NCBI RefSeq assembly: GCF_018350175.1
Contig: NC_058368.1
Coordinates: 109,432,001 to 109,496,000, forward strand
DNA: 64,000 nt
Direction of reading: 5' to 3'
DNA from: Felis catus
Lineage: Eukaryota
Shown here: piece by piece, positions 368 to 62,700 of the stretch
Layout: each line of letters starts with the position of its first letter
Position numbering within the stretch: the first letter of the stretch is position 1
Notes under the pieces: generated by a model
What the model was told of the DNA's origin: nothing
What the model saw: the letters and a program-made list of their open reading frames with translations, nothing else
Databases searched by the model: none
Program-made: the position numbers and the translations under genes

Positions 368-40766
<40,399 letters not shown>

Positions 40767-41187
40767 CGTGGCTCCCTCCTGTGCCCCGCTGACGTCCCCG
40801 CCCTGGGCGCAGTCCAACGGCGCCGGGTTCGCAGGAGAGGTTTGTCAGAGATTACCGAAATACCGCCTTGGCGCTCTCGAGACTGCGGCTCCTCGGGCGA
40901 GAGCAGGCTGTGCGCAAGCGCACTGCGAGCTCGCCCCGCCCCGTCCCCGGGCCTCAGGCTCTCTCGGCCTTCTGAATTACGCCTGCGCGGAAGCTTTCCG
41001 AGTCCGTCTCCTAGGACGCCAGACTAAGGCTGCGCCTGCGCAATGCTGCCATTCGACTGCGCTAGAACTCTGGCCCGCATTGGGGCGGGGATACCTGGCT
41101 GCCACCGGTAGGCAGGGGGAGGCGCTCCTAAATCCCGCGACTACCTTTCTGGCTCTGGCAATATTCCCAGTATTAAAAACAACCATA

Positions 41188-41408
41188 GGGGGGCACCTGG
41201 GCGGCTCAGTCGCTTGAGCGTCCGACTTAAGCTCAGGTCATGATCTCATAGTCCGTGACTTTGAGCCCCGCGTCGGGCTCTGTGCTGACAGCTCAGAGCC
41301 TGGAGCCTGTTTCAGATTCTTTGTCTCCCTCTCTCTGCCCCTTCCCCGCTCATGCTCTCTCTCTTCTCTCGAAAATGAGTAAACGTTAAAAAAAAAAAAA
41401 AAAAAAAA
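41188..41408 (+). mobile_element. CAN-SINE at edge of KIF3A CpG island
   Basis: CpG-retaining head, long A tail. Confidence 0.9.
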
Positions 41409-42759
41409 GGAAAAAATTTAAAAAGCAGTTGTACACTGCGTCCATGCGGAGAGCTAAAGACAGCCTGATTGCTGACTTGTTTATGACCTCTCTTACAGAT
41501 AAGGTCATAAGGAGCTTTGTAGGTGTTTTCACAAGTATCTCCAGAGCCTAAAATAGGACTTAAAATAGGACCTAGCACAGAGTAGGTTTTCAATAAATAT
41601 TTGTGAAAGAACGAATGATCTTGATCCATCTTCTTTCCTGTCTGAAGCTCGCTCTGAACACCAACTACTGGGCTTGGATGTGCAATAGGCTTTTCAAGAT
41701 CAGCCTTGTCAAAAATTGAAAGGTTGATTCCCGCCCCCGCCCACACACACACTACTACTGCCCATCCCCACCCCAAAACCCTGGCGAAACGTTAAAAAAA
41801 AAAAAAAAAAAAATGTGCCCTCTCAGACTTGCCTCAGCGTAATAAATCTAAGCTGAATCCTGACAATTGCTCAGGTCAAACCAGTCTCTTTTTCTCATAC
41901 CCAATAATCAATCTTTAAGCAGAGCTTGTTGTTTCTATCTTCAAAGTAGAACCAGAATCTAACCCTTTCTCACTACCACAATCACCTGTTATCTGTATTA
42001 CTACAACAGCTCAAAATTGGTTTCCTTGAGTGCACCCTTGTCCTCTTTTAGATGTTTTCAACACAGGAGCCAGAAAGATGGTGTTTAAACATGAATCAGA
42101 TAGTGTCTTTTCTCTATTCAAAACCTGCCGATGATTTCCTATCTCACAAACTGAAAGTCACAGGCCCTTTCCCCACTTCCTACAATCTTCCCTCTTGCTC
42201 ATTATTTTGCACCAGCCCCACTTGGCCTCCTTCAATGGACCTTCCGGGCATGGTTCCATCTTAGAACGAAAGAGCTTTTGCACTTGCAGTAGGAAATAAT
42301 AAAAACATCTATAAAGCATTTTACTTAGTGCCAGTGTACTATTCTAAGTGCTTTACTTTCTTTTTTTATTATTTAATACATATAAAAACCTTTTGAAATA
42401 GGTACTGTTAGTCATTTTACTAGAAAATAGGAACAAGTATTTTACAGATAAACAAACTCACGTACAGAGCCATTAAGTAACCGTCCAAGGTCAGACACAG
42501 GGGCAGTGACAAAGCTCAGATCCAAACTTAAGCCCTGGAAAGCTCTCCCTCTAAATATCCCGATGACTCCCCCACCTCTTTCAGAATGTCTTTGTTCACA
42601 CATCACCTTCTCAATGAGTCCTACCATGACCTCTCCACTTAAAATTTCAGCTTTCATCGCCCATCTTCTTATGTCTTCTCCCTATTTTATATTTCTCCAT
42701 AGTATTTATCACCATCTAATATACTGTATATATATATTATGTAAACACATATACATAGC

Positions 42760-46099: not shown

Positions 46100-47150
46100 T
46101 GTGTGCCGCAAAGCCCTACTGTGAAATAAGACGCGGGGTCTGCGGCCCGGTGAACTTCTCCAGGGCCCAAGTGCTCACCAGGTGACGCATTCCGGATTCG
46201 GGACTCTGGTCCTGGGGCTTCGGGCGTCGGGTGGGGAAGAAGCGCTCAGCGGGAGGTGGGGGCGGGGAGTGAAAGAAGACGGAATCCTTCACCCACCCGC
46301 AAGCACTCCACGCGCCACAAGCTGTGAGCAAGTGTCAAAGCCCGGCGGGTTGGGAGTTCCAGGAGCTGCTGCGCGCCCGGGCTGGGGGTGGGCCCGCCAA
46401 ACCCTCCCCGCCCCGGCGCGGCCCTAGCTGCAAGTCCCCCGCGCCGGGTTATAAAAGGCCGGCTATGGCGGGACCCAGACCCAGGAGCCGGCGCTCGCCA
46501 TGGCCTCCGGCAGGCGGCTCCCCTCGCAACCTTCGGCCCCAGGGGGGAGATCAGAGCCGCGTTTGGGCGAAGCGGCCCGCGGCATTCTTCTCCCGCGGCC
46601 TTGGTGGAACCCGTAGCTCTCCGCGCCGTCACCGAGAGGACCCCGAGCTGCCTGTCCCGCTCTCGGTGCCGCGCCAGGTCCGCAGCTCCCGCGGCCACCC
46701 CTCCAGTCCTCAACCCCGCGGGTGCCGTGCGAATGGGGACGCCCTCTGGATGAGCGCCGACTGGCCGCCCACCCGCAACTGGCCCTGGGACGCGAGGCGC
46801 GCCCGTGGCGTGGCGGTCAACCCCAGGTAGCGGGCCCCGCGGCCGGAGCCTTCCGGGAGCACGTTCACCCCCTTCCTCTTGCGCGCACGGGAGCGGCCGG
46901 GTTCCACCTGCGCCCGCGCCCAGGTGAGCAGCACCCTGGAGGCGGGGACCTTCACCAGGTGCGTGCCATGCACGAGGCACGAGGCGGCGGTCGCTAGCCC
47001 CTCTCGCAGAGAGGACGCCTTTCTGGTAGGTGCTTCGGAAGAGGTCTTGAGTTGGGAAACCCTGCTTAGGACCAAAACGGGCGCGAGGACCATCTCAATC
47101 CGTGAACCGCTGGGCAACACTCAGTCCCATCGCGGTTTAAGGTGCAGGGA
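46100..47150. promoter_or_regulatory. CpG island / CCNI2 promoter with TATA box
   Basis: CpG-dense block; TATAAAAG at 46450-46457, GC boxes at ~46260 and ~46406; ATG 46500 in gccATGG context. Confidence 0.85.
46500..46826 (+). CDS. CCNI2: CCNI2 exon 1 (327 nt, interrupted by TAG 46614-46616)
   Basis: MASGRRLPSQPS...WWNP*LSAP...LDERRLAAHPQLALGREARPWRGGQPQ|gtagcg, one frame throughout. Confidence 0.8.
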
Positions 47151-47259: not shown

Positions 47260-47388
47260 GCTGAGATCTGCCACAAGGTCCAGGAAATCGTGTTGTCGCT
47301 CCTGGGGCTTAAGAACATTTTTAACTTCTCCCAAATTACTTTTAACCTGGCTCTCACTACCTTCAGCCGCCTACTGGTTTCAGTAAAG
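47260..47388 (+). CDS. CCNI2: CCNI2 exon 2 (129 nt, cyclin box helices 1-2)
   Basis: caacag|GCTGAG...GTAAAG|gtaggg; AEICHKVQEIVLSLLGLKNIFNFSQITFNLALTTFSRLLVSVK. Confidence 0.9.
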
Positions 47389-47898: not shown

Positions 47899-47973
47899 AT
47901 AAGAGAGAGATTACTCCATTGTGTCATGATTACTTGCTTGAGACTTGCTGCCACATTTAATGAAGAAGAGGAG
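47899..47973 (+). CDS. CCNI2: CCNI2 exon 3 (75 nt)
   Basis: ttcag|ATA...GAG|gtaggc; IRERLLHCVMITCLRLAATFNEEEE. Confidence 0.9.
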
Positions 47974-49468
47974 GTAGGCATCCCTGGGAGTCCACTCTGG
48001 GCTGCTTTTGAAGTATAGGAGTGTTATACTGGAACATTCAGACTCCCAGAAAGGTGTGTCCTTAGGAATGGTGGGCTTTTTAGAAAATTCATTAACTTTC
48101 CAGGATCTCTGCTGTGCTGCCTTTAGCCTTGTTGGACCTCAAGACCCCATAATGGGCACTCAGAACAGCTGAATTCTCCTGGTCCAGCAAACCCAGAGGT
48201 CTGATCTCCTAGCAGATATATCTTTATTGGTCGATGTCTGATGCCACCTCCCACTGAACAGAAACATTGGCTGCTGAGCTAGGAAAAAGGCCTCCCCAAA
48301 CCATGTGCCGTAATGCCCCCCCCCCCCTAGAAACCTGTTGAGACTTAAGGACTTGTCTGTGTCACTGAAGCTGCTCTTCAGGGACTTTGGGACCCTTCTC
48401 TTGAGAGGCAGGAGGGCCATGTGCCAGGGGTCGAGGAGATGCCCCCACAAGTGCTTCAGGCTTGCTTGAACTTGGCAGTTTCACTGTAGTTTCTGTTGAG
48501 AAGATTCTCTCCCAATATCCTTTCCAGACCCCCCTCCTTCCATCTCCACAAACCTTCCCCCTTTAGGGATAGTAAAGCCTGTCATTGCCACAGGGTTCCC
48601 CTTGGCTAAGTTCAGGGTCTGAAGGGTCAGAAAATATCGTTTGTGTGTCCAGTTCCAAACATTGAGTAAAAATGCTTTTAACCCCTGTCCATTACAATAT
48701 AATGTGTGCTCCCCTCCAACAAAGTTGCTTTTTTTTTCAACTAAAAATCAAGTAAATGACCCTTAAAATAAGTGTTTGTGGAGGTTATAATAGTTGTTGG
48801 CTTACCTAAAAAAGTAGACTGGTCTGTGCAGCACCTGGTACTTGAATAAGTCTTATAAGTCCCTCTGGGAAAAAGTCCTTGTTTTTCCAGAACTGAACCG
48901 CCTTAAATCAAGGTTGAAGGAAACGTGGTTGTAGCTATGGTGTTGCCAAAACCACGGGAGGTTTTGTGAGTGAGCCTGTCTAGTGCAGACCGGGAAGTTC
49001 AAAGACCTACTTTTGCTCTCTATGACAAGTAATCACCGTGGGGGTCGGGAACAGGAATGATAAGGATAAAAACCGTGCAGCTGAATGGGGGGGACGCGGC
49101 ACAGCCCCGCCCTCCAAAGGACCTTTGGGCATGAGCTGGAGTGCGTTTGTGGATCGAGGCCTGTTTGCACTGAAACACCATATTGTACACCTAAAATTGA
49201 CCTCACACCATATGTTAACTACGCTGCAGTTAAAACAAAAACTTGTTTGCAGAGGGTGACCATGTGCCATTCACTACACGTTGTCATAACTACCTGGGAC
49301 TTGACACATGGCCAAAATCTGACTTGGTGTTTCTGTCAGAAGCATTTTCTGTGGCATGTCACGAGAAGACAACTCTCCTAGGGTCACGGATGCCCGGTTC
49401 CCATGGATAAGAAAACAAGTTACCATGACATGATACAGGGCTTTGGCCTCTTTATTTTCTTTTTACAG

Positions 49469-49609
49469 TTAATTCCACGCATAAAAGACTTCATAAAGCA
49501 CTACGGCTCTGGCTATACCCCGGGCGAGCTGCTGAGGGTGGAGCTGGCTATTTTGGACAGACTGCACTGGGACCTCTATATTGGGATACCGCTGGACTTC
49601 TTGACCATA
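49469..49609 (+). CDS. CCNI2: CCNI2 exon 4 (141 nt)
   Basis: tttacag|TTA...ATA|gtaaat; LIPRIKDFIKHYGSGYTPGELLRVELAILDRLHWDLYIGIPLDFLTI. Confidence 0.92.
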
Positions 49610-50541: not shown

Positions 50542-50772
50542 TTCCATGCCCTGGTGGTCCTGGGCTGGCCCCACGTGGTGGAGCTGCTGCCTCAGAGGAA
50601 TCCTTCCCTCCACGTCGCGTCCCTGACCAGGCAGCTGCAGCACTGTATGGCGGGCCACCAGCTGCTGCAGTTCAAGGGCTCCACACTGGCCTTGGTCATC
50701 ATCACCTTAGAGTTGGAGAGGCTCATGCCCGACTGGTGTACTCCTATATCTGATCTGCTAAAGAAAGCACAG
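50542..50772 (+). CDS. CCNI2: CCNI2 exon 5 (231 nt)
   Basis: ctctag|TTCCAT...CAG|gtagac; [77 protein letters not shown]. Confidence 0.93.
50592..50757 (-). CDS. SEPTIN8: SEPT8 distal terminal coding exon, antisense inside CCNI2 exon 5
   Basis: gctttctttag|C AGA TCA GAT...; [55 protein letters not shown]; phase matches the 60022 donor; matches the recalled C-terminus of the long SEPT8 isoform. Confidence 0.88.
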
Positions 50773-53700
50773 GTAGACATCAACTTTGCCCCGGACCAGG
50801 CTCTCAGTTTTGCCCCTTGAGCTGATGCACTCTGCCCCCAAAATGGTACGCATCGCCCTTCTTGGCCCCTGTGGGCTCCAGATGTTCTGGCCACAATGAC
50901 TCTGTGAAGAGTCTACCTAAGGCCTAGGCTCTGTACACTTGGCATACCCTCTGGATGAGTATGGGGTACATGTTCCCTTCACTGGACCAATTGGGTGGGT
51001 TTCTTGACAGTGAAAAGAGCTTTATCTCAGTGGCAGCCCTTGTTGTCAAGAGGATGGGGTGAAGTCCAGGGCATGTGCCCGGCTCAGGAGGAAGCACCCC
51101 TGAGCTTAATATTGCAGCGTGTAAATCTCAGACCCCTCACCTTTTATCTGACTGTATGGTATCAGGTACTGGGGTACCATGAGGGAGGCACTGAAGGATC
51201 GGAATCTCTGAGTATGGACAGGGTAAGATGGAAATGCATAGTTAGATGAATGACAGTTTTACTGAGGTTGGAGGTGGATGTCCCTGAGATGGTGGGGTTA
51301 ATGCTCTTGAGCCAAACAGTTGGAACTTCCTGAAATTACTCTGTGCTAACATTTAAGCACTCACTATTTTATTTGGAATGTAAAATGGTTCTGTTTCAAG
51401 GATGACTCTATTTTAATTACAGGTCAGTAGTGAGCAGTTGAGCCACTGCAAGGAACTTGTAAAGCAGCACCTGAGAAGTTTGTAGTCCTCTTCCTGCTCA
51501 GACAACTTTGTTTCACTTCCCAGCCTCTGTGGCCCTACCCTAGTACCCTTTAGAGCATCATGGCAACCCCTTCTTGCTGGGACGCCTCTAAATTCTAGGC
51601 TTTATGGATCCTGTAATAATAAAGGAAGAAGGCACTGGAAGGCAACTGAGAAAAAGCTCTCGAGTCTTGAGAAGGCAGTAAGGAGAAAAAAGGCAGGTCG
51701 GGGGTCCCTGTTGGGAAGGGTGGTCTGACAGATCAAGACCCTGCTCTCCTCTCCCATGGGTCCGAGACCAGCATGAATGAATGAATGGTCATACTGCACC
51801 TTGGTTTTCCCTTCTTCTCCAGCATGGACTGGTAGTGGCCCCTAAGGGAACTGGAGTCAGGCCAGCAGTGGGCCTTGCTCAGGACCGAAGGGCCGGGCTG
51901 GTTCTGACTGACCAGCTTGTGCTGCTCCACCTACGGAGCTGGCCAGGTTCTGTCGGCTTCCCAGACTTCTGGGAAGTGTAGCACTTCAAGTGCCAATGAC
52001 CTTGCCCATCATGGCAAAAATGGGACCGTTTCTCCAAATGAATGTCCCCTGACTTGGCCATGACCTAGGTCTTCTCTTCATAAGACCTGGATCATAAAGT
52101 ATGCTTTGTTCAATGTACAGTAACTTGGTCAAGCTTCACACGTTTGTCCTTTGTTACTCTTAAGCAAAGTAGTTTACTACCTTAGAGGAATTTTATGTTT
52201 AAGAATGATCTCAGCAGCTGACCCCTGATGGGGAAACACAGCTCTGAGAGCTTTAGGTCGAGATGAGCAGGTTCTGAGGCTGAGGCTGCTCCCAACATGC
52301 CACTGCTAGAAGGAGATGACTGGCACAGCCGTGAGGGAGAAGCCAGCTGTCTCTCGGACAGCAGGACACTACAGAGCCATTGTCTGGGCAGGAGACTCCA
52401 GCAGGCAGAGCTGCCCCCTGGAGCTGTGTAAGCAGCGTCGGGAATACGAATGACAGAACCACACATTTCACAGTGATTTCTGAAGTCTTGCCACCCTGAG
52501 CAGTTTTTTGTAAACAGGCTAAGCTGTGAGGAATACGACCTGCTGCTAGATGCAGAGAGGTCACAGACCAGGTAGACTATAACAGTGCGCGTATGAATCT
52601 CTACCTATTGTCCACACAAATTTGCCTGGTGGAGCTTCTGTAAAAATAAAGTTTAAGTCCTTTCAACCTCATCAGAATCTTATTTTAAATGTATTGGATA
52701 TCCAGCATTTAGACTCGATAGTCACATACACTTAGAATACCACCTCCTGGGTCCCAGCAACAGCTGTCTGTAGTCCAGCACCAATGGAGAGGCTGAGGCA
52801 CATCCTGCTGCTCACAGCAACCCCTCCCAGGGCCACAGCTGCCCCCTGCCCCCTTCCTTGTGCTGGGAGTGAGGACTGGGGGCAGGGGGAGCAGGGAGTA
52901 CGGGCTCATGCTGAGCACCCATCCCAGCTCTGGCTCTCTCTGACTTTGGAGAACTGCAGGGAAGTCTTGACCTCTTAACTAGGGAGCTCTGAGTGGAAGC
53001 TGGGTCCTCAACGCTAATCTCTCAGAGAAAGGAGAAGGTGGACCTGTGTGTGAACCCTGTACTGAGAAAAGGGACAGCCCTGCTTTAGTAAACAGTATTG
53101 CTCTTTGAGAAAGCAAACTTCTGCGTTGCCAAGTACCACTTGGGAGTTTGAGAAAAGTTTTTAGGCTGTTGAGGCTCACCTTGGGATTCCAGGTCCCATC
53201 TTCCTCTCTCTCCCTCTCCCTCTCCCTCTCCCCCTCCCCCTCTCCCTCTCCCCCTCTCCCTCTCCCCCTCCCCCTCTCCCTCTCCCCCTCCCCCTCTCCC
53301 TCCCCCTCTCCCCCTCCCCCTCTCCCCCTCCCCCTCTCCCTCTCCCCCTCTCCCTCTCCCCCTCTCCCTCTCCCTCTCCCCCTCTCCCTCTCCCCCTCTC
53401 CCTCTCTCCCTCTCCCTCTCTCTCTCCCTCTCTCCCTCTCCCTCTCTCCCTCTCCCTCTCTCCCTCTCCCTCTCTCCCTCTCCCTCTCTCCCTCTCCCTC
53501 TCTCCCTCTCCCTCTCCCTCTCCCTCCCCCTCTCTTTTTAAGCAACTCCTATCCCACCTCAGATCAGAGATTGGGATTGTTGTGGTGGGAGAAGTATGGA
53601 CACGATTTGTCTTGCTTTTGTCCCTGTCTACAGAAGGGGAGGGATTGGTGAAGGACTGTAGCTACAGAAAATGGAGAGGAGAGAAGACACGGGCAGATGG

Positions 53701-56700: not shown

Positions 56701-59700
56701 GGAGTGGTCCCTGTGTATGGGTAGCACCTGTGGAGCACACAGACAACGGCTTTGGGCTGCTGTTCCATTTACGTCCACATTTAAAACACTGCATGGGGTC
56801 TCCTTCGTGTCCCACTTTCATCCATAAAGAAATTCCAAACACTGTCATCACAGGATGTTTATTACCCACCTCTCCCTAAATATTATAGGGATACTTTATA
56901 CATAAGAAAGGTTTAGAGATATTTTTAGTTTTTAAAAAATGAGGGAATCTGGGTTACTTATGAAAATAACGGGAGAGGATATTATTTGTCTTTACGCTTG
57001 TGCCAAAATAAAAATTTAGAAGTATCTTAAAAGTTATTATTGAAATTAAGCTCTAGGTTAGAAAAATTAAACTGAGGGGGAATCGAGCGAATTTTGCAGC
57101 ATGTATACCAGACCACGCGGCCACACCTAGGGCACCGCATGAGTTGCCATCTTGACGCTGAACAATTAGGCCGAGCATCGCCGGCTGGGGCCTTCGCTAG
57201 AGCGGCACATAACTGCTCCGTCAAGGAATAGTGACACTGTAAATGGAAGACCAGCCACTGGCTCTGAAAAAAATAAACCTTGTCAGTTTTGGATTCCAGC
57301 ATTCATGGCTTTGACGTGTTTGCATAGAGAGGGTGGCCCACCAGGCCCAGGGCAGCCTGGGGGTGGGGGTAGGGGACAAAGCAAGGCTGTAAACACTGGA
57401 GTCTGTACCGGCTCCCAGTCCGTCCTCACACCATGTTATGGGAGAAGAAGGGTCACAAGGTGTAACTCAAGCAACTTAACACATGAAAGTCTAAAGTCCG
57501 CTCTTGACATGTAAGTCTGTGCGTGCGTTAACTGAAAAATAAAAATAAAACAAACAGAACAAAAACAGACACATTAAAAGATACGCAGACGACCAAATCA
57601 AACAGAAACAAAAGACAGCAAGTTGGCTGCTGGGAAAGGGCAGTCAGTTTGGCATTTGTGGCGAGCAAAGCAGAGAATTTGCTTTAGTTTGTGGCATTCC
57701 AGGCTGAGGGTCAAGATCTGATTGGGAACTAATTTTGCAAAAATGGATTAAAATCTAAAGACTAAGTATAACCAATCAAAGCAATCTAACTCAGTGGTCA
57801 TGAAAAACCACCCCCCACCCCGAAAGCGCTCCTCACATACCCCATTCCCCTGACCAGGACAAGAGGAAGGGGCACTCCAGGCCACCTCACCTACCCAACT
57901 CCTGGCCTCACAAGGCCAGCACGGGAGGAGAGGTCTCTCCCAGAGGCCAAACGGACTGAAGCTTTCTGGCATGTCCAGCAAGCAGAAAAGACCTGTTTGC
58001 CAGACCCAGGCCACACTGGGAAGGCAGGGAGACCCGACACCACAGATGAACTCTCACCCCGAGAGCTGTGCTGGTGCCCTTGCAGTCAGCCTGCACCCCA
58101 CCTCCTGGCCCTGTCCTGGCCACACGTCCGTGTCTTCAGCGTCTGAGCAGTTTCTCCATAGTTTATCTCCTAGGAGATTCTGCCTGTCTTTTCTGAAACA
58201 AGATGGCCCAGACCAAGCTGGCAGGGAGCAGGGCACAGTCTCTTTAGATGCCAACACCTGGGATGTAGACCCACACACCCCTTTCCAGGAGAAACTGGAT
58301 TCTTAGCCACTAGCTTGAAACCCACAGAGATTCCAATTCACAGAGCCCCAAGGCTCACCAAGCCAAGAGCTGGACATGGGGCTGGGGCTGGAAGCAAACG
58401 CAAAGCAAAGAGCAAATTCACATGGTTGAGGGAAATGTGGGGCTAGGGTCCTCCCTGGGGACAGGCAGGGGGTTATCTCTGCCAACAGTGCCAGCAGATG
58501 GGGTAGGACACACCAGGAAGCAGGATGAGGGAGACTATAGAAAGGAGGGGGGGGGGGGGGTCTGTCCCAAAGCAGAGGACAGGCCTTAGGAATAAGAACT
58601 AGCATTCTTTCCTAAATGCCTGGCTTTGTCCCCCTCATCTCTCCCAGGGAGCAGCTCAAGAAGGTTTTTTTCCTCAGATGTCTCTGTGCTTAGGTGCCCT
58701 GGGGGCTGTGTATGTTGCATGACAAGTGCCTGAGTCTGTGCATGTGACAGGGCTGGAGTGAGAGTAAGACTGTGTGCATGGGTGTATGTGTGTTAGGGAA
58801 TGGCAATACTAGGGGCGGGGAGAGTGCTGATGCCACAAGCAGCATCCCAGAGCCACGGCTGGCTACCTGCTGCATGGCCTTAACCACAAGCCTCCACTGC
58901 CACCAGGGAAAGAAGGGCTTGAACACACACATTCCCAAACATTCCAAGGAGACATGAGTGTCCAAGAAACTCGAGAATGAGGACAAAAATGGAATCATCC
59001 GCTTAGTTCCTCAGCTGACAAGCGAAAGATGGTATCTGACCCAGGCCAGGGGCAGGGAGAAGTAGGGATGGACGAGATCCCACAGCGTGATGAGGTACGG
59101 GACACTGAATGAAGTAGTGTGGAGGAGGGAGACCCCCCTAGGAACCAGGGCATCTGGACTCTGGCTGAGAGTGTGGAAAGAGGCTTTGAAAAAGGCTGAG
59201 GAGAAATGACTCGGAGTTGCCCCCACCTGGCCAAGAGGTTCACTGCACTGCGCAGGCTGGAAGCCTCCTGTCCTCCTCTCTCTTCCAACTCTAACTTCTA
59301 CTTGAAGGGCAGCTCCTCTCTGGAGCAGGACTCCCAGAGCCCCTTCAGGGAGATGGTGTCCTTCCTTCCACCAGGCAGTGAGCAGAGTGCCCAGGGGCCA
59401 GTGCTGCCTGGGCTCAAGCATCCACCTGCCAACCAATGCAGGTCCCACATCCACTGTAGAGACTGAGGGGGATGCACCACGCTGCCCAAGCAAAAACCAT
59501 AGGAGATTTTGGAATCTGGAAATGCGGACATTCACCGGTCCTGCCCCTCTCTGGGCTTGAAAGACCTTCCCTGAGACCTCTATACCCTTTTAGGCCTGTG
59601 TGGCCTGGGCTTCACCATCCCAGCTCTGAGGGGGCGGCAGGAGGGGGAGAGAGAGAGAGAGAGAGAGAAAGAGAGGGGGACAGGAAGAAAGAAACAGAGA

Positions 59701-62700
59701 CAGAGCCTGAGACTGAGCCAGGAAAGAGAGAGACAGAGAGAGAGAGAGGAATAGAGAATCGGGGTGGGGGGGTAACAAGGGGTTACCTGTGCAAGACAGA
59801 GCATGCACAAATACCCAGTATCCTGAGATATCAAGCTCACCAGTGAGAAGAAAAGAAAGGAGGGCAAGAATGAAGTGGGAAAGCGTGTGGGACTGAGAGC
59901 CAAATGGTGACTAGGCAGAGCATGGGCGAGAACCAAAGTAGACTCAAGGAGCCAAGAGTAGGACAGAGTGGGTGCCCAGGAGGGAGCAAGAGCCAGCGTG
60001 GGCAGGAGGCCCACCACCTACTTCTTCTTGTCCTTGTCCTTCCTCAGAGGCTGCTGCGAGGTGGCGTGCAAGGCCTGGGACTGCAGGGCCTCCACCGCGG
60101 CCTTCCTGCGGTTGAAGGCGCTAGTCTCCTCCTCCAGCTCCCTGCGCTTCTCTTCCACCTTGCGCTTCTCCTCCTGGTGGACCCGCTTGAGGTGCTCAAA
60201 CTTCTCGTGCAGCTGGGAGCAGAGGAGGAACAGGGGCTTCCTGTGAGCCTGGCCAGGCCCCGCCCTCCCTCACCTGGCCTCTCCCAGACCTGGAGCCCAC
60301 ACGTACCTCCCTCTCCTTCTCCTTCAGCTCCAGCTCTGTCTCCTTCACTTTGTTGACGAACATCTGCCTCATCTCTTCCTCCTTCCTCTGCAGCTCACTC
60401 AGGAACTCCTTGCGCTTGGCCTCGTAAGTCTCCTGCAGACTGTGGAGACGCACAGACAAGAGGCCAAGGGTGGGATTGTAGCGGGATGGGATGGGGCAGA
60501 GCCGGAGAAGGGGGATCACTTGGGCAAAGGAGGGTGCCAGGGTCCCCACGCCCCTCCACCTGGCTCATGAGACACCCCCCCCGCCCCCACCAGGCACAGC
60601 TGCCAGCATGGCAAGTCTGGCCGTGGCTGTGGAGATGGGCTCACGCCCCACGCAGGATGTCACCTGAAGGGCTGGCTGTCACCATCGCTGTCCTGGAAGC
60701 CCATCTCCTCCAGCTTGCAGCGCCGGTACAGCTCGTAGTGCCGACTGTGGGTCTGTTCTCGGAGGTCCTCCATGTTCACTCTGATCAACATCTCCCGGAG
60801 CTTCACAAAGTCACAGTGGTTCTCATTCTCCACTGAAAGCACAGGGCCCGTGGGGCATCAGGTGAACACACACACAGGTGGGCACAGGGAGGAAAGAACA
60901 CAGGAACAGCAGTCAAGTGTTCCAGGCCGACTCCATTGGCAGCACAGGCACTGGACAGTCAAAGGGAGGACATAGGCCAGGAGACTGAGTTTAGGCCCAC
61001 CACCTGGGGATGTGCTCCCTCTAGTCACTTACCCTGCACCACTCCCCATGGGTACTGCCGTGCTCGGACCAGCTTGTTCCCCACCTTCACCTCTTCAGTG
61101 CTGCCTACCACAGCGAAGGGCAAGTGCGCCTGGAAAGGAGCCCAAGTATGGGTGAGCAATGGGTGGACAGACTAATGGACAGACCCTCCCTCACTATCCT
61201 GGACCCCAGGGAAGGGATGCCACACCTGAACAAGGCGTGGCCAGATGCTTGCTTCCTGGCTCTCTTTTGGAGAAGTATCCTAAGGCCTCCAAATAGGAGA
61301 GCGGGCTGAACCTGCACCCCCGTCTTCCTCACATTTGAGGGGTTCTTTCAGACCTTGGGCTCCCTAGGGGCCATTAGAAGCTCCCTCACAGGACCTGCAA
61401 GCCTGGCTTTCCTCCATGTTCCCAAGCTCTGGCATCTTACCTGCTTACTCCTACAGGTTTCAGTTCCTGCCCTGCATCCTTATCTTGTGAAACTTAAGCG
61501 TGGGAAAGGCCCAGCACCAACCCAATACCCAATTCCTCCCATCTCCTGGCCGTAGGACGTAGGACTGGCTGGCTTCCAGATGCCCACCCACCCGTCTTTC
61601 CTGAATCCTGGAAATCCTGGGGAATCCTGGGGGAGCCAGAGTCTCTGGGGCTGCCACAGATCTATGCTGGCTCCAAGCCCCCTCTGGCCCTGAGGCCAGT
61701 GCCCAATGCTCACGTTCATGACTGCGTTAATCTCGGCAACAGCCTCATCATCAGTGGGAAACTGGTAGATCTGAACCCCATTGCTGACCAGCTCGCCCAT
61801 GATCTTGATCTTGAACTTGTGGAGCTCACTCTTGGAGATGGTGTCAGCCTTGGCAATGATGGGAATAATGTTCACCTGCCAGGATGAGGGGTGAGGGGCA
61901 GCAGGTTAGTTCTCCCTGACTGTGGACAGCCCTGCCCAGTCCACATCCCCAGGCAGAAAGGCAGGAGGCCAGAGACATGGAGCTGCTCCCATGGGCAGCC
62001 CCAGCCTGAACCCAGCCACCTGGGGCCTTTCTAATGGGTGGTACCAATTGACTATGGGGCTTCTTACAGCCCTGGTTCCCTCAAACCACCATCTAGCCCT
62101 AAAAACTAGTCCTCTGGGCAAACCCAGCTTTGGTTTTTAAATAAGAAATAATTCAGCTAGGGCTCAGGACCAGACTAAGGAGACAGAGCTCTACAGAAAG
62201 AACCCAGAGTGATGAGGGCCCATTGGAGCAGTAGGGAAAAGGCAAGAGAAAACAGCACCAAGCCCAGGAGCTATCTGCAGGCCCCTAAGCAGCAGAGCCC
62301 CTGAGGACCACAGTAGACAGTCACACTGCAGGCCCCAACTCAGCGGAGGACCATGAAGCCCACGGAACAAGTTTGGGGGGCAGGGTGTGTACCTTGCTGT
62401 CTAGTTTCTTCATGGTCACCAGATCCAGGGACTTGAGGGAGTGCCCAGTGGGCGTGATAAAGTAGAGGCAGACGTGGACCCTCGTATCGTGGTAGTCGAA
62501 GAGTGAGCGGCGGATCTTCAGCTCCTCCTGCAGGTAGTTTTCAAACTGCGCGTCGATGTAGTCAACTATGGGCCTGTAACTAGAGACAGCTCCATCACTC
62601 CTGAGGCAGGCACTGAGCCGCAGGGCGCGGGCTGCCCCCAACCTGCTCTCTGTAGGGACGAGCGGCTTCAGTCTGGGGTTCCCTGTCTGGGTACAGGTGG

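Follow-up and report, generated by a model that had tools for sequence, protein, structure and literature searches.

A stretch of DNA that encodes part of a cyclin on one strand and the end of a septin on the other raises two questions: which of the two frames came first, and which of them now holds the exon in place? We examined both for the overlap of SEPT8 and CCNI2 in the cat genome, within a stretch of 64,000 nucleotides (referred to below as the window, whose numbering is used throughout).

An alternative last exon of SEPT8 lies antisense within CCNI2 exon 5

The features that make up the overlap are the following.

50757-50592, minus strand: coding part of the SEPT8 alternative last exon (the tail exon; mouse exon 10b), 166 nucleotides
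50758-50776, minus strand: SEPT8 3′ splice site, a pyrimidine tract and TAG (50760-50758) with a tandem AG, presumably used in cat
60022-60212, minus strand: last common SEPT8 coding exon, LHEKFEHLK...KDKDKK, 5′ border approximate
50631-50642, minus strand: CCSC cluster, tail residues 39-42, opposite CCNI2 Gln and His codons
50542-50772, plus strand: CCNI2 exon 5, 77 codons (ag/FHALVV...LLKKAQ/gt), fifth of six exons

The septin exon supplies the last base of an Asn codon, 54 further codons (RSDIG...REGFL) and a TGA stop (50594-50592). The donor at 60022 (...GACAAGAAGAA/gtaggt) is in phase 2 (AA/gt) and the tail acceptor at 50757 reads ...ctacctgtgctttctttag/CAGATCA (tag/C). When these are joined across the intervening 9264-nucleotide intron, the AA of the donor and the C of the acceptor form the Asn codon, and RSDIG... 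follows in phase; annotated septin-8 proteins show the same join (KDKDKK-NRSD). An earlier note on this DNA, written from the sequence alone, had described a 166-nucleotide minus-strand tail inside CCNI2 exon 5 with this acceptor and phase, and its account proved exact when the cat DNA was rechecked. Its identification of the peptide as the tail of the long SEPT8 isoform was also borne out, since the cat tail is identical to that of an annotated septin-8 (P0001) at all 54 residues (100%) and is 87–98% identical to most other eutherian sequences. We infer that the 60022-50757 junction is used in cat. The acceptor is a tandem (TAG CAG, 50754-50760, minus strand), and its second AG, three bases downstream and overlooked in the earlier note, explains the annotated KSD form that occurs beside NRSD (P0006, P0013, P0179). 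Both forms are annotated, in mammals as well as in fish.

Codons 18-72 of CCNI2 exon 5 overlap the SEPT8 coding frame, and codons 1-16 lie opposite the SEPT8 3′ UTR. The two frames share their third codon positions (both 0 mod 3), and the same bases carry both frames on opposite strands in a bird-like DNA locus (L001) as they do in the cat window. Read on the plus strand, the acceptor TAG becomes CTA, a Leu codon of CCNI2, and the pyrimidine tract becomes the CCNI2 codons AAG AAA GCA CAG together with the donor of that gene. On the cyclin side, exon 5 encodes helices in the second half of the cyclin fold, which was assigned from a model of the full-length coelacanth CCNI2 protein (exon 5, residues 156-232; mean pLDDT 75.7). 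In that model the overlap forms helices at residues 176-231, and the fold matches cyclins D, E and A. Exon 5 alone had no sequence match in the PDB, and neither exon 5 nor exon 2 alone matched a Pfam family. Some gene callers have read through the SEPT8 acceptor and produced unspliced antisense proteins with invented N-termini (P0002, P0005, P0007, P0010 and P0020-P0023).

The cat tail exon is orthologous to mouse Sept8 exon 10b, the alternative last exon of the isoform called SEPT8-X1 or Sept8-204 (Yuan et al. 2018, PMC6092797). As described in that paper, NOVA blocks an upstream poly(A) site and exon 10b is used, being found in 65% of motoneuron transcripts as opposed to 22% in whole cord. 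Residues C469 and C470 are palmitoylated, and knockdown of exon 10b reduces dendrites and spines, an effect partially rescued by the wild-type protein and not by Cys-to-Ser mutants (PMC6092797). The S-palmitoylation that the earlier note had called plausible for the CCxC cluster was thus already established in mouse. The main text of the same paper contains neither ‘Ccni2’ nor ‘antisense’, and gives there no origin, age or cyclin overlap for exon 10b. Tail residues C39 and C40 number as mouse C469 and C470, and the di-cysteine is kept in cat. A search of titles and the beginnings of abstracts found no literature on the SEPT8-CCNI2 overlap; subscription journals and the supplements of overlapping-gene surveys, which may list the pair, were beyond its scope. 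A 2023 study by Liu et al. reportedly also deals with palmitoylated Sept8-204.

Several further features of the window were noted. An AATAAA lies on the minus strand near 56863 with six YCAY motifs in the surrounding 300 nucleotides, a count made with no control at a signal that may not be the orthologous poly(A) site. A 330-nucleotide pyrimidine repeat of CTCCCT type occupies 53204-53534, inside the last SEPT8 intron. Downstream of the tail, AATAAA occurs on the minus strand at 48223, 49451 and 49969. If a distal one were used, the SEPT8 3′ UTR would span CCNI2 exon 4 as well, which could help explain the 80% identity of that exon among mammals and could confuse unstranded RNA-seq counts.

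The tail occurs from skate to eutherian mammals

A word-based search with the bird tail found it in 39 of 40 candidate proteins, the bearers being a skate (Amblyraja), teleosts, frogs, a caecilian, a crocodilian, birds, echidna and eutherians. Thirty-seven of the 39 are named septin-8, two are unnamed and none is named as another septin; no tail match carried the name SEPT11, SEPT6, SEPT10 or SEPT14 among the 24 and 40 candidates of our word-based searches. The tail is therefore not peculiar to the long mammalian SEPT8, as the earlier note had described it, and a mammal-specific origin is ruled out by the skate, teleost, amphibian, bird and echidna tails and by L001.

Direct signs of the overlap come from DNA and from unspliced proteins. 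L001, the sole DNA locus to emerge from a metagenome scan (1 of 361 pattern matches, too few for dN/dS), carries CCNI2 exons 1-5 and shares with cat the antisense exon, its acceptor and its stop. In unspliced fish frames the tail is preceded by TCAFFS and followed by RAWNW, the reverse of the two ends of CCNI2 exon 5. These signs place the overlap at least as far back as the bony-vertebrate ancestor. Of 48 positions compared in the skate tail, 38 agree with what the opposite strand of coelacanth CCNI2 could encode, compared with 29–33 for three CCNI proteins and 5.8 for shuffled sequence, in a comparison that covered the skate septin protein, with skate DNA and CCNI2 outside it. This protein dates the overlap at least to the jawed-vertebrate ancestor. 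That ancestor lived over about 420 million years ago.

Conservation of the tail exceeds passive constraint

A frame that shares its third positions with a cyclin frame may be preserved passively, as the earlier note had cautioned. When the CCNI2 protein was held fixed and its synonymous codons were randomised (20,000 trials per setting), the antisense frame was open in 13–55% of recodings, and about 37 of the 54 tail residues are fixed by the CCNI2 protein alone. Openness by itself is therefore no evidence of function, and we dropped the open-frame argument. The caution, which holds for openness, does not extend to the sequence of the tail: recoded bird CCNI2 reached the real identity to the cat tail (41/54) with a probability of 5e-5 to 3.5e-4.

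Between cat and L001 (a DNA comparison of one pair of sequences), the third base differs in 10 of the 54 overlap codons versus 31 of 47 codons of exon 4 (P=1.9e-6), the exon 4 count being inflated by a difference in GC3 between the two sequences in that exon (0.68 and 0.40). For codons that encode the same residue in both, the corresponding counts are 9/40 and 16/21. Conservation falls at the SEPT8 stop, with 21 differences in 50 bases upstream and 25 in 162 inside; the diverged stretch (L001:5001-5050) corresponds to exon 5 codons 1-16. At the protein level, all 77 distinct tails share C30, W33, W34, C39, C40, C42 and L43, a count anchored on residues 14-29 and drawn from 111 tail-bearing proteins among 125 (the other 14 are short isoforms or cyclins). 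Six of these seven residues, all but C39, could be changed by substitutions that are synonymous in CCNI2. Selection on the SEPT8 frame thus exceeds passive constraint.

The opposite reading would make the tail a passive by-product, in which selection on CCNI2 keeps the frame open and annotation pipelines attach it to SEPT8. Such a reading would accommodate both the frequency of open recodings and the share of residues fixed by the cyclin, but we find it scarcely credible. Mouse, from which CCNI2 is reported absent, retains the tail; two stops interrupt the equivalent frame of CCNI, which is subject to the same passive constraint; and the exon is present in 65% of motoneuron Sept8 transcripts and yields a palmitoylated protein (PMC6092797). 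For mouse, the published isoform data refute it.

The cyclin frame is the older of the two

The cyclin frame aligns with CCNI and with cyclin I of amphioxus and of a hemichordate. The tail matched nothing in Pfam or the PDB and its best Atlas match (0.82) was at chance level, so that an origin from another protein family was rejected. In the cat genome beyond the overlap, the only tail-like match was the antisense shadow of CCNI. Wider homology for the cyclin frame, and none for the tail, agrees with the proposal of the earlier note that SEPT8 overprinted the antisense strand of an older cyclin exon. By these matches the cyclin frame is ancestral and the septin tail frame newer.

The paralogous pair provides a control. 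Cat CCNI (contig C11, plus strand) lies tail to tail with a septin of the SEPT6 group, which has the same AA/gt donor, located 23.4 kb from the position equivalent to the SEPT8 tail acceptor. We take this septin to be SEPT11, by synteny and by its C-terminus. The block (G000:C11:142567087-142643195; loci L002-L005, L008 and L010), which has a cyclin G-like match about 77 kb away, is the paralog of the SEPT8-CCNI2 block. Read antisense, CCNI exon 5 matches the tail at 57% (E 1.9e-8) and contains two TGA stops, one of them at the C39 position; its pyrimidine tract is interrupted and the second AG of the acceptor is kept. The nucleotide identity of CCNI and CCNI2 over exon 5 is 145/231.

The two paralogs also differ in how well this segment is conserved. 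In CCNI, the segment equivalent to the overlap is 62% identical between monkey and lungfish (exons 2-4: 70%, 84% and 81%) and 88% between monkey and rabbit, versus 100%. In CCNI2, the overlap is 96% identical between penguin and coelacanth, versus 71–81% for exons 2-4, and 95% between monkey and rabbit, versus 60–81%. Few parts of the CCNI core are less conserved than this segment, and no part of CCNI2 is conserved better.

Every Cys and Trp of the tail motif lies opposite a cyclin His or Gln codon, so that both the anchor and the acceptor were drawn from cyclin sequence. The antisense of amphioxus and hemichordate cyclin I can encode 23–28 of 48 tail residues (a shuffled tail against coelacanth CCNI2 gave 5.8). 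Lungfish CCNI can still encode four of the six residues C30, W33, W34, C39, C40 and C42, and amphioxus cyclin I can encode none of C30, C39 and C42.

These comparisons bear on whether the overlap might predate the duplication, with an ancestral septin already splicing into exon 5 of cyclin I and the SEPT11-CCNI pair having lost the arrangement. Both copies have the septin-cyclin I arrangement and the phase-2 donor, and the retained second AG, the 57% antisense likeness and the coding capacity of lungfish CCNI would all suit such a history. However, a shadow of this kind is expected from cyclin homology alone (145/231 nucleotides), the tail matches among the 24 and 40 candidates include none named SEPT11, SEPT6, SEPT10 or SEPT14, and amphioxus cyclin I lacks the capacity for three of the motif cysteines. 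We regard an origin before the duplication as unlikely. Our searches yielded no cyclostome sequence, by which a gain after the duplication could be told apart from a loss in SEPT11-CCNI; the gain would be the simpler reading.

Constraint peaks on the overlap in mammals, and both genes appear constrained in birds and reptiles

Among mammals, CCNI2 sequences are on average 95.6% identical to cat over the overlap (40 aligned sequences) and 99% over the acceptor codons. The corresponding values are 84.7% for exon 5 codons 1-16, 80.2% for exon 4 (39 sequences) and 63–66% for the exon 1 core and exons 2, 3 and 6 (29–34 sequences passing the alignment filter). The 40 sequences come from 46 aligned, after one felid, a second Saguinus copy and four non-mammals were left out, with some species present twice; as the CCNI2 sequences were chosen and ordered by their similarity in exon 5 (best 120 of 256), they are biased toward high exon 5 identity. 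The expectation in the earlier note that constraint would peak on the overlap (95.6%, versus 63–80% in other exons) is upheld. In birds and reptiles, CCNI2 exons 2-4 are 81–93% identical (24–25 sequences), which indicates that both genes are constrained there.

Within the overlap, with silent and altering classes defined on the cat window DNA, the substitutions seen favour those silent in SEPT8. In mammals (34 sequences), 7 of 19 possible CCNI2 changes that are silent in SEPT8 were seen, versus 19 of 289 that alter both proteins (P=3e-4); in CCNI2 exon 4, 60 of 276 possible changes were seen (32 sequences). The reciprocal class, SEPT8 changes silent in CCNI2, was seen at 4 of 30 (28 tail sequences). 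The asymmetry between the frames (7/19 versus 4/30) is not significant (P=0.08), and the two sets of sequences differ. Sauropsids (50 sequences) show a weaker enrichment, with 4 of 18 SEPT8-silent changes versus 24 of 291 (P=0.07).

Rodents provide a case in which the cyclin is reportedly missing. CCNI2 is reported absent from mouse and rat (PMC5256034), and the tails of mouse (P0179), hamster and gerbil are retained with the motif intact. A species reported to lack CCNI2 thus keeps this segment, a check that the earlier note had put forward. The further suggestion there that the rest of CCNI2 drifts was only partly sustained. It fits exons 1-3 and 6 in mammals at 63–66%, but not exon 4 at 80% or the sauropsid exons 2-4, and it is also too strong because human and chicken CCNI2 activate CDK5 (PMC5256034). 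In mammals other than cat, CCNI2 therefore appears relaxed and not neutral, and it appears conserved in birds and reptiles.

Conservation of the exon might instead be mainly a matter of nucleotides, through splicing signals on two strands, a sense-antisense RNA duplex or an enhancer, with the tail secondary. Sites that are fourfold degenerate in both frames differ at only 1 of 9 positions between cat and L001, which hints at constraint of this kind, and exon 5 codons 1-16, beyond the coding overlap, are also raised in mammals. The drop in conservation at the SEPT8 stop and the preference for substitutions silent in SEPT8 argue the other way, as does the failure of Cys-to-Ser mutants to rescue dendrites of mouse neurons (PMC6092797). 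We therefore judge it very unlikely that such constraint is the main cause.

A few CCNI2-like sequences depart from this pattern. In Saguinus oedipus, P0081 is a second CCNI2-like sequence on another contig, in a model fused to unrelated sequence; its changes would remove antisense C40 and W33, and it may be a copy freed from the overlap. The CCNI2 sequences of Tamandua (P0069) and Smutsia (P0062) carry several changes in the overlap that would alter SEPT8 residues, including W33 and C30 in Tamandua. These may be copies from another locus, sequence errors or true losses of the tail.

CCNI2 is probably decaying in cat

The plus-strand gene of the window is the CCNI2 ortholog by sequence and exon structure. 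Its remaining exons are as follows.

46500-46826, plus strand: CCNI2 exon 1, ATG at 46500 and in-frame TAG at codon 39 (46614-46616)
47260-47388, plus strand: CCNI2 exon 2, 43 codons, open
47899-47973, plus strand: CCNI2 exon 3, 25 codons, open, with Thr at the cyclin-box Lys position
49469-49609, plus strand: CCNI2 exon 4, 47 codons, open, end of the Cyclin_N domain
51423-51485, plus strand: CCNI2 exon 6, coding part, 20 codons and TAG

The frame that runs from the orthologous ATG through the cyclin box is interrupted in cat by the TAG at codon 39, and no further in-frame ATG follows that codon within exons 1-2. A mini-intron excising the stop was judged unlikely by eye (about 56 nucleotides, with a weak donor). 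The Lys of the cyclin-box Lys-Glu pair, which is treated as defining (PMC6971155), is Thr in cat; it is Lys in 67 of 67 motif-matching sequences (126 examined), and the Glu is retained in exon 4. Two Leu-to-Pro changes lie in the N-terminal helix region of exon 1, before the cyclin box; with 126 sequences examined, the first site is Leu in 23 of 23 matched sequences and the second is Pro in 0 of 50. Felid database models of CCNI2 (P0025, P0201 and P0202) lack exon 3 and the orthologous exon 1 and disagree on their starts, and those of Felis and Panthera begin with intron-derived sequence that matches translations of the cat window.

By this reading, CCNI2 in cat is probably a decaying gene, with an assembly error or an alternative start also possible, and felid CCNI2 may be dead. 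As CCNI2 looks broken in cat, exon 5 may be dual-coding there by descent only. A functional felid CCNI2, expressed from another first exon, from a non-AUG start or by exon 3 skipping, would instead leave the exon truly dual-coding. The gene does retain open exons 2-6 with GT-AG borders, and its differences from hyena in exons 2, 3 and 4 are few (4/43, 2/25 and 5/47 residues); databases also carry felid models of it. We nevertheless consider a functional gene unlikely, given the TAG at codon 39, the loss of the cyclin-box Lys and the two Pro changes, and given that all three models are without the orthologous exon 1 coding sequence and exon 3 and start differently. Cat exon 5 is identical to that of rhinoceros over its 77 residues, and the exon 6 stop position is matched in rhinoceros, dog, seal and two felid models.

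Dog and seal CCNI2 (P0028 and P0029) lack the stretch of exon 1 that carries the felid stop (the 46500-46826 region). Together with that stop, this gap suggests that the N-terminal extension of mammalian CCNI2 is unstable in carnivores.

A proposed history of the overlap

The explanation that we favour, and consider probable, is that a new last exon of the septin overprinted an old cyclin exon on its antisense strand. Its foundations are the anatomy, age bracket, polarity and pattern of constraint observed here; the order of its steps, and the gain after duplication, are our reconstruction. An ancestral septin of the SEPT6 group would have lain tail to tail with cyclin I, and duplication of the pair would have given SEPT8-CCNI2 and SEPT11-CCNI. 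In the SEPT8 copy, before the split of skate and bony fish, read-through transcripts may have spliced the old phase-2 donor to sequence antisense to CCNI2 exon 5. There the reversed codons for Leu-Lys-Lys-Ala-Gln would have offered a pyrimidine tract and an AG, the frame with shared third positions would have been poor in stops, and reversed His and Gln codons (CAN, read as TGN) would have supplied Cys and Trp. The cluster of cysteines may then have become a palmitoylated membrane anchor, put to neuronal use when NOVA blocks the upstream poly(A) site (as shown in mouse). Both frames would have been under selection in most jawed vertebrates. In mammals, CCNI2 would have become relaxed, leaving SEPT8 as the stronger constraint on the exon, with CCNI2 apparently broken in felids and, by report, missing from mouse and rat.

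A bolder statement, for and against which we see about equal weight, is that this is an unreported overprint of at least jawed-vertebrate age, older than that of TRalpha2 and perhaps older than any other functionally tested one among vertebrates, that its palmitoylation motif came ready-made from cyclin His and Gln codons in reverse and its splice acceptor from Lys codons, that the new frame has outlived its host, that mouse exon 10b is the remnant of a lost cyclin and that felids stand part-way along the same course.

Relation to known overlaps and implications

Since both genes are annotated and the overlap is visible in a genome browser, the system is not of a new kind. It is a case of antisense overprinting, a class already known, and it is distinct in its age, in its paralog control and in a new frame that outlasts its host. 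The closest parallel that we considered is the antisense coding overlap of TRalpha2 (THRA) and Rev-erbalpha (NR1D1), which is described as unique to eutherian mammals (Rindfleisch et al. 2010, PMC3047299). There, too, an alternatively processed isoform overlaps its neighbor antisense, and a 3′ splice site decides whether the isoform exists. Compared with TRalpha2 as presented in that paper, the SEPT8-CCNI2 overlap is far older (skate, teleosts), has a defined lipid anchor, and has a host that is decaying or lost in some mammals.

One antisense frame is proposed on theoretical grounds to gain and keep ORFs more easily under sense selection (Iyengar et al. 2024, PMC11266595); the stop-poor frame of SEPT8-CCNI2, with its shared third positions, would correspond to ‘frame 1’ of those authors. 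Antisense emergence and exonisation are both listed as classes of de novo origin (PMC12605812). The yeast and fly ORFs of these two sources, as treated there, are mostly of unknown function, whereas the SEPT8 tail comes from an ancient vertebrate exon whose function has been tested and for which a paralog serves as control. CCNI2 itself has been described as an atypical cyclin and an activator of CDK5 (Liu et al. 2017, PMC5256034; PMC6971155). In contrast to that published CCNI2, the cat gene has an early stop and lacks the defining Lys; the main text of PMC5256034 does not contain the word ‘septin’.

This locus offers a rare vertebrate case in which the antisense birth of protein sequence can be traced with controls: SEPT11-CCNI is without the overlap, both genes are intact in birds, reptiles and coelacanth, the host looks broken in felids, and it is reported lost in mouse and rat. 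With these controls and the published dendrite function, the theory of antisense ORF gain becomes testable over deep time. There would also be practical consequences. CRISPR edits in CCNI2 exon 5 would be expected to strike SEPT8 as well, a variant that is synonymous in CCNI2 could be missense or nonsense in SEPT8, and unstranded RNA-seq may assign SEPT8 reads to CCNI2. Conservation of exon 5 in a species would be no evidence for a functional CCNI2 there.

One retinal eQTL variant is tied to the expression of both CCNI2 and SEPT8, as reported in PMC11228954. Such a joint eQTL could be explained by shared reads or by shared regulation. Elsewhere in the window, a second CpG island lies at 40001-42000 (104 CpG in 2 kb), which we take, by human synteny, to be the KIF3A promoter.
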